Below the pieces are notes generated by a model. It did no database searches. It was not told the origin of the DNA and saw only the letters and a program-made list of their open reading frames with translations. A stretch of 64,000 bases of DNA from Hormiphora californensis (taxonomy: Eukaryota; Animalia; Ctenophora), in assembly GCA_020137815.1 (NCBI GenBank), contig CM035358.1:5952001-6016000 (forward strand), written 5' to 3'. The translations under genes were made by a program, and so were the position numbers. Positions 43,101 to 49,100 of the stretch are shown here, in pieces (the first letter of the stretch is position 1; each line of letters opens with the position of its first letter).

Positions 43101-46100
43101 TTTTAGCTACCCATGGGTTCCTATGACAACAAGCAAACAGACTTACCCGTGCCATGATCCCAATTCGATCTCCCAGCAGGTCAGCTTCATCCATGAAGTG
43201 GGTGGTAAGGATGATTGTTTTGTCTTTCTTGTACTTCAGCAACAGGTCCCAGGTGGATCTTCTAGCGGCCGGGTCCATGCCTGGAAGGAAGGGGTACTAG
43301 AGAGCTGCTTGGAAAAGAAAGGAGTGTGCTGGGAGAACCGTGTAGCCGTTCAGAAGGAGAGATGGTCGAACAAGTGAGTGAGTGAGAAATAATGAGGACT
43401 GGGCGGATAAAGATATATGATAAAGTGCAGGCTCAACTGCTGCAGTAGCTCAGTGTAAACAGTGTTTGTTTTGGCTTCTTTCCAACACTCGTCCAACTGT
43501 ATAATATCCCAGTAAAGTGCAACACTTAAAAAGGTGCTAAATAGTCTTAGTGAACCGGAAATATAATTCTCAAAGAATACACGTGTACTGTGGGATTTTA
43601 CAGGTGTTCTAGAAAATTAACCGGCTGTTTTCACACACACATGTTCCCAAATCCCAAGTTGTTTTACCAGAAATAATAAACATTTTCAAACTCTTACCAG
43701 AAATAATAAACATTCTCAAACTCTTACCAGAAATAATAAACATTTTCAAACTCTTACCAGAAATAATAAACATTTTCAAACTCTTACCAGAAATAATAAA
43801 CATTTTCAAACTCTTACCAGAAATAATAAACATTTTCAAACTCTTACCAGAAATAATAAACATTTTCAAACTCTTACCAGAAATAATAAACATTTTCAAA
43901 CTCTTACCAGAAATAATAAACATTTTCAAACTCTTACCAGAAATAATAAACATTTTAATAATAATAATAATAATAACTATGTTTATATTCCGCCCATATC
44001 CGACAGGGACAGAGCAGCGAAACTGCTGCTGTCACTGAAGGATGATCTGAACGGTTAATATACTGGTAAGACCTCGCCAACTTATCCCTAATAGAACAAA
44101 AAAAAAATAATAAAGAAAAATTACACCGGCTCACATTACTATCGGCTCACATAACTATCGGTGACTGATTACATAACAGACTGAGTTAGAGTCCTGGAAC
44201 TCTAAAAATTGATATAAAAGTCCGTATATTGGAAACACAGAAAAACACTCGTGCTATGAAAAACCCCAATATATGCTTCACACTTCTGCTCGCCACGAGC
44301 TTAGATACAGAAAAATAATTAAAAACGGGTACCAGCTAGAGCACATACCTCAGCAAGAAGGAGAGTGTTAAGAGGACAGTCCAGTCTCACCAAAAGCCTC
44401 AGTGAAAAGACTAGTCTTGAGCTTAGACTTGAAAGATTCCACAGACTCAACAGCTCTCAGATCAAGGGGAAGCCTATTCCAGACTTCAGGCAGGTAAACC
44501 GACGGACGTCTTCTTCTCAACTTGGAAGTCGCGTTGACACTTGATAGCTTAGGGTACTTCAGCTTGAGGCCATCAGGCCAAGCATTTCCTCTAGTAGCCC
44601 GGATCACATGAAGTCCATCATCAACAGGGACCTGATCTTGCAGGTAGTCAGGGGCCAATCCATGTGCAATCTTGTACGCCATAAGGCATGCTTTGAACGT
44701 GACTCGTTGTTCCACAGGAAGAACATGCAATTCTTTCAAGTATGGCATGTAGGTGTCTTGGTGACCGTGTAGGCCATAAACAAATCTGACACACGAGTTC
44801 AAGACTCTCTGAAGGCTGTTGAGAAGCTTCTTAGGTAAGCCATGGTAAAGGATATTACAATAATCCAGTCTTGAAATGATGAGCTGCTTAACAAGGAGTA
44901 TCTTCGTCGATCTATCTAGACACCGGTTTACCTGCCATAGATTCTTCAACAACAAACCACATTGCCTCTTAACACTGTTGATTTGCCTCTCCATAGAGAG
45001 GTTGCTATCAAGGAACACTCCTAGTGTTTTCCCTGTACTCCCCGTAAAGTCCACTGGGCTTATCTCCACTCCACCAAAGTCCACAGTGGGCTGATAGACC
45101 ATCTTATCCAGGGCGCTGTTTTTGCCTAACAGCAGGAATTCAGTCTTTGCCTCATTGCACTTTAGCCAGTGCTCACTCATCCACTCTTTCACACTTGACA
45201 AGCATTCCTCAGTCCTCTCCTTTGCCAGTTTCCAGTTTTCCTCATCAGTTGGAACAAAGCTGATGTACAATTGCGAGTCATCAGCATAAAGTTTAATCCT
45301 TAAGCCATACGGTTTCACCAAATCTTGCAATTCCTCCACATACAGTAAAAACAACACAGGTCCAAGCAGTGAACCTTGCGGAACTCCACAAATCAGAGAG
45401 ACAATCCTCGAAAGTTCCCCTTCCACGTTTACCCGATAAGTCCTCATTTGTAGATAGTTGGCGAACCAATCCAAGACAGAACCCTTCACTCCAAACCGTT
45501 CTTCAAGAACTTCTAGCAGCTTTCCATGGTCCACTGTGTCAAAAGCGGCGCTCATATCTAATAGAAAGAGGCCTGCGACCTTTCCTTCATCCATATCCCG
45601 AAGGAGATCATCAAACATACCCATCAGTAGGGTTTCACAGCTATGATTCACCCTGTAACCTGATTGATGCTTATTTAGTAACTCGTTCTCATTAAGATAC
45701 GAGTTGAGCTGCTCTAGAACTATCTTTTCAAGAAGCTTGGAGACAAAAGATAGGTTGGAGACTGGCCGATAATTGGTCAAAGCGTCCTTATCGCCATAAG
45801 GGTTCTTAATCGTTGGAAACACCAAAGCTTGCTGGAGAAGTTCAGGAACACTGGAACATCCAAGAGATAGGTTAATAAACCTGCACAAGACTGGAGCTAG
45901 CTCATGCATACACCCTTTCACTAACCAAGTCGGTATAGGGTCCAGATCACATGTCTTGTCTGGCATGTCTTTGATTATCCTCTTTAGTTTCTCTGGGGAA
46001 ACTTCCTCAAATTCCTCAAAACAACAGACGGGTGTCTGATGAATAGGGTTCCTCTTAGTCCTCAGATTCTTCTCTCCAATAACAGTAGACCGGATCTTAT

Positions 46101-49100
46101 CAACTTTTCCAACAAAGAAGTCCGCAAAGTCATCCGCTAACCTCCGCTTATCTGTGGTTTCAGGCATAAAGGTCTCGGTATTACCAAGTAGACGGTTCAA
46201 TTTCCTTTGAAGTGCTTTGGGGTCATCTCTGGACTCCTCCAAGTCTTCCTTGACGTAGTTTGTCCTCGCTTCCTTGTCAACACGCCCAAACTGCCTCTTG
46301 AGTTCATTGAACTGCTTCTTCGTGACGCTGGTTTTATTGTTCTCCCAGGCTCGCTCAGCATTCCGCCGCTGACGAAGAACTTGACGCACCTCTGGATTAT
46401 CTCTCCATGGCCTCAGCTTAGCTCCTCTCTTCTTTCTCCTCTTCAACGGGACAGTCCTATCCACAAGTTCCTCAAGTTTCCTCATATAAATACACAAAAC
46501 CTCCTCAGCTGATCCAGATTCCATCGCTTCATTCCAATCCACACTCCTAAAAGCACATCGAAGTATTTCAATATCAATAGCCTTGAAATCTCTGTACATG
46601 TCCACTTTTTCACGAGTCTTGTATTCACTTGCTACAGTTTCAATACACAGCTCCGCCAATACAAGAAAATGATCAGAGGTCGTTCCGTCAGGAAATACTT
46701 CAACTGATTGAACCTTAGAATATCTGTCTTTTTGGCAGAGAAGCAGATCCAAAGTACCACCACGAACATGAGTAGGTTGTAGTGGGACCCGCTGATCAAA
46801 TCCAAGAGAGTCAAGTAGTCCAAGCAACTTCTTCGCATAGAAGTTCTGAGTATCTTGAACCTGGAAGTTAAAGTCCCCCATCAGGATAGGGTTCCCCGTT
46901 TTGCAGACCAACTCTGACAAATAATCGGTAAACTCATCCAAGAACTGGGCTTCCGTAAACCGTGCCTTGCCAGTATACGGAGGTCTATAGATATTGCATA
47001 GCCTCGTCACATCTTTTCCTCCTCCAATAAGGGCTTCCTGGACTTGAAACGATTTAAACTTGGCTTTTACCGGAGTGTATTTCAACTTGACACCATCCCT
47101 GTACAAGATTCCAATTCCACCTCCTGAACGTTCTGCTCTAGGCGAAGAGAAGATATTCCAACCATAGTCTCTGATCTCCTGAAGTTTAGCTGTGTCACTC
47201 TGTTTCAGATAAGTCTCCTGTACCAAGCAGATGTCACATCCTTTTTCCTCCAAGTGTGTAATTACACCTGACGTCTTATTCATAACTGAGTGGACGTTTA
47301 GTGTGCCAATCCTCCAAGACGTTTTCCTCTCAGATCCTCCCATGCCCTCGTCAGGTACACGTTTTTTTCCTGCTTCGTTACTCCACTGGTACTCTCCATG
47401 AGTCTTCCTTTAGCATTTACATAGAATGGACACATACTGCTGGAGGCTGGGTGACTTTGAGCATGGCGCTTGTCCTCTCTGCTTCCTCCATGATCACAGT
47501 TGACACATTTCATCCTGCTTACTACATTTTCCTTCTTGGCATGGCAACTCCTAGTGTCATGATCTCCCGTACAGAAGGCACAAACCGGAGATTTATCCTT
47601 GTTTGGGCAGTAGATGGATCCTGCTACATGGCCAAAGCGCTGGCAGTGAAAACACTGCGTGACATAAAACCTGTTCCTCACTGAATGCTGTCGAAGTTTC
47701 AAGAATAGCTTGTCCTTCCTTTCTGATATCGCCTTCCTCACTTCTGGAGAGACCTGGAACACTGCATATCTTCCTGTTCTGTTTACATGGACCACCTTCA
47801 CCAGGTGACCCTCCCCAACTAGTCTCTTCACAGACTCATTCTTATCACTGACAATCTCTGACAGAAGGCGATCTTTTTCCAGTAGGTCCTGGTCAAGATC
47901 ATTGATCATGATGCGAGGATCTCTTTTCTTCTCCTTCTCCACTACGGGAGAAACATCAAGGAACGGTGAAAGAACTTCTTTCGCCTGTTCCAACTGTTCA
48001 TCGGTCTCAAACATAAGATTTGTCCTCCTCTTGGTGACTGAAAGATCTAGGACTGGAATCTTATTCAATGCTTTCTCCACCTTTGTCTTCACGACAGTAG
48101 TCCACTTCTTCTCACACATAGGTCCTTCTTCACCTTTATCCTTGATAGTCAGATACCTCTTAATTGGAGTCACAGGGGTCACAGTTTCCTGTGCCGAGCC
48201 AGTGCGATTCACAGCATGAATTGCCAATTGGTCACTGCCAGGAGCTAAGATCTTGCTAACCTTGGGGGCAACCAGATCCGGTAGTGTGCTCAGAAGATCC
48301 TCTTTCAGCTTATCCAGTGTATCTCTCAAGTCTTCAGCTGTGAATGATGTCACAGATTCAGATGAGTGGGTAGAGATGCGTCGTGTTTCTGGTAACAATC
48401 CATACAGTTCCTTGACCATCGTCCATAAAACCGCTTTGGAGGCTCCACTTGGAGGCTCCACTGCATCATCCTTAATGCTCTGCAAAATACTGGCACCCTT
48501 ACATCTATCAGAGTAGCTCGTGGCGAGCAACTTACCCTCCATATCGTTCCTGCACATTATAACATCATGGGTAGCCACACCCGACATCCTGTCCTGTAAA
48601 TAGAGGCGCGAGGAACCGTTCCTTGCAAGTCTTGGCGTCCTTGGTTATAACCCAACGAGGTCCTCTGAGATCTGTTTACTTAGAAAAACCAGACACGTCT
48701 TCTCTTGTCTTTTCTTTAAGGAGAGGGATAAACAGAAGTCTCAGAAGGATTAGCGAGGGGCAGCAAAACGGATCCTCAAATTAATTTGTTTAAAGTAGTG
48801 TTGAAAAGTTTGAAACTCTTACCAGAAATAATAAACATTTTCAAACTCTTACCAGAAATAATAAACATTTTCAAACTCTTACCAGAAATAATAAACATTT
48901 TCAAACTCTTACCAGAAATAATAAACATTTTCAAACTCTTACCAGAAATAATAAACATTTTCAAACTCTTACCAGAAATAATAAACATTTTCAAACTCTT
49001 ACCAGCAGTAGGCTCATCTAGCAGGACGACCTTGCTATTTCCAATCAGTGCATTAGCGCAACTCAACTTCCTCTTCATTCCCCCGGATAAACATTTTGAT

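Follow-up and report, generated by a model that had tools for sequence, protein, structure and literature searches.

How does a long interspersed nuclear element (LINE) come to carry the spliced leader (SL) of its host at its 5' end, and how is such an end remade? LINEs must regenerate their 5' end in every cycle, for which an internal promoter or co-transcription with a fixed target is assumed. The question is raised by a 64,000-nt stretch of the ctenophore Hormiphora californensis genome (GCA_020137815.1, contig CM035358.1, positions 5,952,001 to 6,016,000; here called the window), in which an intron of an ABCA gene holds a LINE that begins with the SL. We find that SL-headed LINEs are real, family-wide, and present in multiple lineages, and that they represent a new LINE variant in an animal, with a claim about its life cycle that can be tested on existing ctenophore long-read genomes and Iso-Seq data.

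Overall structure of the SL-headed LINE

The element is a complete LINE with two open reading frames (ORFs), located on the minus strand (48818-43957) and nested in a 30-bp tandem array. Its parts, including the untranslated regions (UTRs), are listed below in window coordinates.

48775..48818, minus strand: SL copy (43-nt SL exon plus one G), 44/44 against the leader in PMC8527503, with the SL gene structure taken from locus L068
48588..48774, minus strand: 5' UTR, 187 nt, begins GATCC
47298..48587, minus strand: ORF1 of type I, 429 aa, with two predicted RRM-like folds ahead of three Cys/His knuckles
44368..47343, minus strand: ORF2, 991 aa, APE endonuclease and reverse transcriptase, 46-nt overlap with ORF1
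43977..44367, minus strand: 3' UTR, 391 nt
43957..43976, minus strand: (TTA)n 3' tail, 20 nt

Both ORFs are open; their integrity, the 187-nt 5' UTR, and the sense orientation in the host ABCA intron, all pointed out in the initial annotation, were confirmed in the sequence. ORF2 matches PF03372/PF14529 at residues 14-228 and PF00078 at residues 522-761, corresponding to an APE endonuclease followed by a reverse transcriptase. By these domains, its simple-repeat tail, and its dispersed relatives, the element is an APE-type LINE; the (TTA)n tail also ends the relatives L032 and L049, in other flanks. No internal repeat was detected in the LINE by self-BLAST, and the exact 3' 14-mer of the SL occurs a single time in the whole window.

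The predicted structure of ORF1 (pLDDT 77) contains two beta-alpha-beta units, and its fold matches are tandem ferredoxin/RRM folds with low TM-scores. The Cys/His residues of the knuckles are invariant, and zf-CCHC falls below the cut-off in 6 of the 32 ORF1 rows. Type I ORF1 is described as one or more RRM domains immediately followed by CCHC knuckles (PMC4120745), and the modeled ORF1 fits this type of the Jockey superfamily. In that survey, LINEs with type I ORF1 (L2 subgroups 2, 8, and 10, CR1 subgroup 3, and Jockey) share the APE-reverse transcriptase ORF2, the two RRM-like folds, and the three knuckles, whereas the 5' end of the window LINE is the host SL. No named reference LINE was found among the database matches to the element. 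The label L2/CR1 is presumptive and reflects a general resemblance.

The 5' end is the host leader and not an SL gene

Positions 48818-48775 are identical (44/44 nt) to the leader that PMC8527503 gives for Hormiphora californensis, in agreement with the initial annotation, which had named this 44-mer as the host SL. According to the same source, 56% of Iso-Seq reads carry the leader, which also occurs at 718 places in the genome; for Mnemiopsis it gives 491 genomic leader copies, and the leader of that species shares only the end motif. The suggestion that the window copy is not an SL RNA gene also holds. TTTGAG is followed by GA, in contrast to GT in L068, a locus with an SL RNA gene array (junction GAG/GATCC versus GAG/GTAAGC, the slash marking the end of the SL), and no SL gene promoter or promoter region, GT donor context, SL intron, or 5S gene was found around it. 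Because the SL gene starts C/AGTTTC (L068, with which loose contig ends agree), the leading G of the 44-mer is not templated by the SL gene; it is also present on two mRNA-like contigs, L045 and L069, and is likely derived from the cap. The tandem unit of L068 measures 778 bp, and the array consists of alternating SL RNA and 5S rRNA genes (L068:263-381, 711-735, 1041-1159, and 1489-1513).

The SL head is a family trait

The element was searched in contigs of public sequencing runs; 20 of the 22 rows listed hold part of the LINE, and 8 runs were compared in detail, the first four over 48220-48825 only. Contig depth does not equal copy number in these data, and contigs drop rare variants. In run X6, one contig (record 32, 48655-48801) shows 0 differences from the window at a depth of 4979.9 and reaches 27 nt into the SL. 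It represents the entire depth at 48689-48695, and the depth of the element body is 3543-5952 at the low-overlap positions 46576, 46633, 46924, 47883, and 48324. In X9, which is labeled as another species, the depth of 3696.2 at 48765 equals the summed depths of four contigs: one of depth 2256.2 with 20 nt of SL and no difference, one of 677.1 with 26 nt, a UTR-deletion derivative of 739.3 with at least 5 nt, and one of 23.6 in which 10 nt of SL are followed by other sequence. All four run 5-26 nt into the SL, and 79% of the depth does so by at least 20 nt. X5 contains two diverged subfamilies with the junction (3 and 11 differences). No SL-less branch was seen at the junction in X9 or X6, given that contigs drop rare variants.

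The SL head is thus a family trait, its junction being covered about as deeply as the element body in three further runs (X5, X6, and X9), and these junction contigs exclude a one-off event for the family. A one-off retrocopy was the outcome that the initial annotation had set against its own proposal; instead, the junction recurs in these runs and in 12 LINE-like loci described below. Among the pieces listed for X1, X22, X11, X13, and X20, none covers the junction. The SL is present in the RNA-type runs X22, X13, and X20. The stretch compared is without LINE coverage in X22, and X13 and X20 have only low-depth LINE pieces, which may be DNA.

Two internal deletions were observed, each of which may mark a non-autonomous subfamily: 125 nt from the UTR in X9 (48623-48747, depth 739) and 73 nt from ORF1 in X11 (48177-48249, depth 995). 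The leader contigs in X22, X13, X20, and X9 differ at 1-5 positions (48775-48818), and for the LINE junction contigs the listing omits some differences, which may fall within the SL.

SL-headed LINEs at other loci

A scan of metagenome contigs with the last 25 nt of the SL yielded 107 matches in 106 loci, which comprise 93 mRNA-like loci, one SL RNA gene array (L068), and LINE-like 5' ends at 12 loci, of which 8 are firm and 4 probable. The first ATG of the mRNA-like loci lies at a median of 10 nt and within 60 nt in 88 of the 93; Pfam was applied to 11 of them, and 8 match ordinary gene families. Five LINE-like loci (L020, L029, L032, L049, and L066) match both ORF1 and ORF2 of the window LINE, the partial contigs L098 and L105 align by UTR with L020/L032, and in L063 an APE ORF comes after an unrelated ORF1. 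The probable LINE heads are L009 and L054, which share an ORF (E 1e-8), and L096 and L101, which share a UTR motif with these two. By its motifs, the L009/L054 ORF is presumably that of a LINE; in the protein atlas, the L009 ORF matched only unnamed ctenophore clusters. Two assemblies without mRNA-like SL contigs, which are taken to be DNA assemblies, contain 11 of the loci, 10 of them LINE-like and 1 the SL gene.

The junction is located at the SL donor position in 12/12 LINE-like loci and in the window. Eleven copies are flanked: the first SL nucleotide present is nt 1-4 in 8 of them and nt 6, 9, and 16 in the remaining three. SL nt 1 is kept in 1/11, and no copy contains sequence from upstream of the SL start or from the SL intron. 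The junction at the donor position, together with 5' ends near the SL start, therefore points to an SL-capped RNA that was reverse-transcribed up to its end, as had been proposed for the window copy. Since the flanks of the window LINE and the 11 flanked loci are unrelated to the SL gene unit and the junction is exactly at the donor position, insertion into SL genes is excluded. NeSL and CRE/SLACS/CZAR are described as R2-group elements with a single ORF and a restriction-like endonuclease, inserted in SL genes (PMC3636483). The window LINE is likewise an SL-linked element without long terminal repeats (LTRs) but differs by its two ORFs, its APE, and its unrelated flanks, which bears out the earlier view that it is not of this type.

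Further observations were made on these loci. L009, L054, L063, L096, and L101 have short UTRs and a small GC-rich motif in the first 60 nt after the SL, though their ORF1s differ; ORF1 of L063 presumably carries PHD-like and CCCH-like Cys patterns. One SL-headed contig (L073:244-1470) contains two ORFs with no Pfam match above the cut-off, and its motifs resemble those of a large DNA transposon, which it may be. The SL pattern had 0 matches in viral contigs, where ORF1 gave 1 weak match (31% over 68 aa), and ORF1 was found in 0/163 candidates from prokaryote genomes; 3 prokaryotic matches to an SL 21-mer lack further SL sequence and were taken as chance. No shared fold of SL plus UTR was detected across 9 loci, a comparison run with no shuffled controls.

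Renewal or inheritance of the SL

Is the SL then inherited by each LINE family or renewed? Six families (the window LINE, L020, L029, L032, L049, and L066) have ORF1 proteins that are 31-61% identical, and their synonymous sites are at or near saturation, with pS values of 0.68-0.85 over ORF1 and ORF2. These SL-headed families are scattered across the whole tree of 32 ORF1 rows, the other 26 rows being without DNA context. Over the 43 nt that follow the junction, similarity is 44-89% among the six families and 30-51% between the two groups of SL-headed elements; the SL is identical. The 18 SL nt outside the search pattern match wherever present, up to the truncation point of each copy, and the window SL copy was not selected by that pattern. 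In addition, unrelated ORF1 types are also SL-headed. Judged from sequence divergence, passive inheritance cannot give an identical SL across families saturated at synonymous sites. Identity of the SL despite this saturation therefore implies either re-supply by the host or selection on all 43 nt, and these comparisons make it likely that the host renews the SL of the LINEs.

Proposed life cycle and alternatives

On balance, we lean toward the reading that the SL of these diverged ctenophore LINEs is re-supplied by host trans-splicing, in each or most cycles, at the AG of the SL copy itself. In such a cycle, LINE RNA would receive the SL by trans-splicing and be translated, and reverse transcription would run to the capped end, often with loss of the first 1-3 nt. 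The new copy might then be transcribed from upstream of or within the SL copy, either by host read-through or by a promoter in the retained UTR (145-215 nt across loci) that fires upstream. The terminal AG of the SL copy might serve as the acceptor, in which case the junction would never move and 5' erosion would be repaired. A bolder version, which we offer only tentatively, is that the LINEs possess no promoter or 5' end of their own: copies in transcribed DNA would be cut from host RNA at their own SL AG, capped, translated, and re-inserted, this would have arisen in several unrelated lineages, and many genomic leader loci would be LINE heads.

Several results weigh against re-supply at the copied AG. 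We scored acceptors against 27 host cis acceptors inferred from the ABCA gene, bearing in mind that trans acceptors may be laxer, as outron acceptors are reported to be in Schistosoma (PMC5832876). The host sites comprise 25 CAG, 2 TAG, and 0/27 GAG, the triplet in which the SL ends, and the SL end scores -1.9 bits versus the host median of 6.2, above only 2 of the 27 sites. In the 8 clade-A loci, 1-4 AGs per UTR outscore the SL end, and TTTYAG is kept directly behind the junction in 3 of the 5 short-UTR loci. The window LINE lies 228 nt behind the true cis donor, with six donor-like repeats between, and is doubtful as a source itself because the SL is reported to lose out to a cis donor (PMC4558846). 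The junction contigs carry 20-27 nt of SL, below the 31-nt bridging threshold, and no junction piece from an RNA run is among the pieces listed. The metagenome search pattern fixed 25 of the 43 SL nt, so that copies with a variant SL or none could not appear. Finally, a contig of depth 12 in X5 joins the SL to the AG at +144, as alternative trans-splicing would give; it was dropped as support, the joint not being seen in X6 (same sample) or X11. The initial annotation had proposed that the AG of the copied SL is the next trans-splice acceptor and that a sense-intronic copy is the launch pad; both proposals emerge weakened rather than shown.

The UTRs hold no strong acceptor either. None of those in the 8 clade-A loci reaches the host median, and all 15 AG dinucleotides in the 5' UTR of the window LINE are weak acceptors, the best of them 2.4 bits at +181. 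A strong acceptor before the ORF1 ATG was considered and dropped, at 2.4 bits in the window and below the host median; no joint of the SL to an AG before this ATG, or to ORF2, is listed in any of the 8 runs. L096 starts where L054 has a downstream AG, a hint of a junction shift from a modest alignment.

It seems unlikely that the SL-headed copies are abundant dead ends derived from rare masters with their own promoter and outron. This account explains the SL identity and the exact junction without a GAG acceptor, and L1 SpIREs provide a precedent for dead-end spliced copies; they too are retrocopies of spliced LINE RNA, but cis-spliced and a minority (PMC5860796), whereas SL-headed copies make up most of what is visible of each ctenophore family. 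A few masters could be invisible when contigs drop rare branches, yet X9 and X6 contain no SL-less junction branch, and many families have persisted to synonymous saturation. Under cis preference, copying would act on the spliced RNA that is translated, so that new masters would seldom arise and loss of the acceptor would be strongly favored.

We also doubt that each lineage gained the SL once and that selection keeps it, as a start site, internal promoter element, or translation leader, without re-splicing. An exon-internal promoter element has been ascribed to a nematode SL, for which a literature search found no paper. A single capture would fit the clustering of 5' ends at the SL transcription start (8/11 at nt 1-4), the weak GAG acceptor and the retained TTTYAG would need no explaining, and the unlisted differences of some subfamily contigs may fall in the SL. 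However, it needs all 43 nt to be identical in families that are saturated at synonymous sites and in unrelated ORF1 types, even though the leader itself varies at 1-5 positions among contigs of RNA-type runs and the Mnemiopsis leader is described as having only the end motif in common (PMC8527503); moreover, SL nt 1 is kept in only 1/11 flanked copies. A one-off chimera (a template switch onto SL-bearing RNA, insertion in an SL gene, or an assembly artefact) is highly improbable: the LINE 5' end and the target array share a 6-nt microhomology, but the same junction occurs at high depth in X5, X6, and X9 and at 12 other LINE-like loci, always at the donor position and without an SL gene promoter, GT donor, intron, or 5S gene nearby.

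Comparison with known systems

Genomic SL sequence beside mobile elements has been recorded in flatworms. In one study, 597 SL loci within 500 bp of LTR/LINE elements were discarded and integration of trans-spliced transposon RNA was suggested (Calvelo et al., PMC12582326); in Schistosoma mansoni, six genes have SL sequence beside mobile elements (Boroni et al., PMC5832876). The ctenophore loci are alike in having a genomic SL next to such elements. As far as the accessible parts of these papers show, the flatworm cases are partial leaders or possible mis-assembly, without family-level fixation, junction mapping, or a life-cycle claim, whereas the ctenophore SL is complete, stands at the donor position, and heads intact elements of many families. 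In dinoflagellates, SL-capped mRNA is retrocopied and re-spliced at an AG of the copied SL (PMC3229502; Slamovits and Keeling 2008 as cited there), so that re-splicing of this kind has a precedent. That recycling concerns host genes, uses an internal AG, and leaves stacked, decaying relics; in ctenophores the carriers are LINEs, and no stacked, shortened SL relics were seen behind the junction in the window or the 12 loci. In Hydra, ~30% of transposable element Iso-Seq reads carry an SL (PMC12220107), which places it at the RNA level only, SL-headed DNA copies not being described in the accessible part of that paper. A literature search with little subscription coverage revealed no study that treats an SL head as a fixed trait of LINE families or as part of a LINE life cycle, or that describes ctenophore LINEs with an SL, and the accessible parts of PMC7986045, PMC9911081, and PMC13343379 contain nothing on SL-headed elements.

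If re-supply by the host is correct, trans-splicing would be a further solution to the 5'-end problem, open to any LINE in an SL-using organism; the SL would act as a self-renewing cap for LINEs, and transposon load would be tied to the origin and upkeep of SL trans-splicing. SL-headed LINEs offer an explanation for the 718 (Hormiphora) and 491 (Mnemiopsis) genomic leader copies of PMC8527503, and SL-gene counts and gene models with a "shared first exon" call for caution, as they may be LINE heads.

Insertion site and host gene

The surroundings of the LINE consist of the following features.

48813..49005, minus strand: upstream half of the 30-bp target array, 6.6 copies
43664..43956, minus strand: downstream half of the 30-bp target array, 9.8 copies
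49003..49177, minus strand: host ABCA exon upstream of the insertion, donor CTG/GTAAGA at 49002
43147..43280, minus strand: host ABCA exon downstream of the insertion, acceptor TTCCAG

The two array halves show 99% matches. GAGTTT, the first 6 nt of the SL copy, is also present in the array unit; because it fits both, the 5' edge of the LINE is exact only within this 6-nt microhomology. The initial claim of an exact 5' end in a split array is thus upheld to within 6 nt and not to the nucleotide. The target-site duplication is unreadable because the insertion lies in a perfect array. The LINE is sense in a 5722-nt intron whose flanking exons join in frame, and the host gene is of the ctenophore ABCA type, its top matches being ABCA3-like proteins of Mnemiopsis and Bolinopsis (78%). 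The array begins at the intron donor, with 6 GTAAG copies between the exon end and the element; its 30-bp unit (43664-43956, 48813-49005) is an amplified exon-intron border, by which the ABCA donor is repeated ~16x in the intron.

Elsewhere in the window, one ABCA intron is filled by a 20-bp repeat arrayed over 4.5 kb (18005-22562), and two tandem-repeat blocks recur inverted ~2 kb apart in an ABCA intron (35962-38167), possibly as a DNA element with long terminal inverted repeats. An ORF with a signal-peptide-like start (24671-25105, plus strand) lies antisense in a 9.5-kb ABCA intron and is likely a nested gene. At the window edge, a 173-aa ORF (63357-63878, plus strand) resembles a bHLH-PAS exon.

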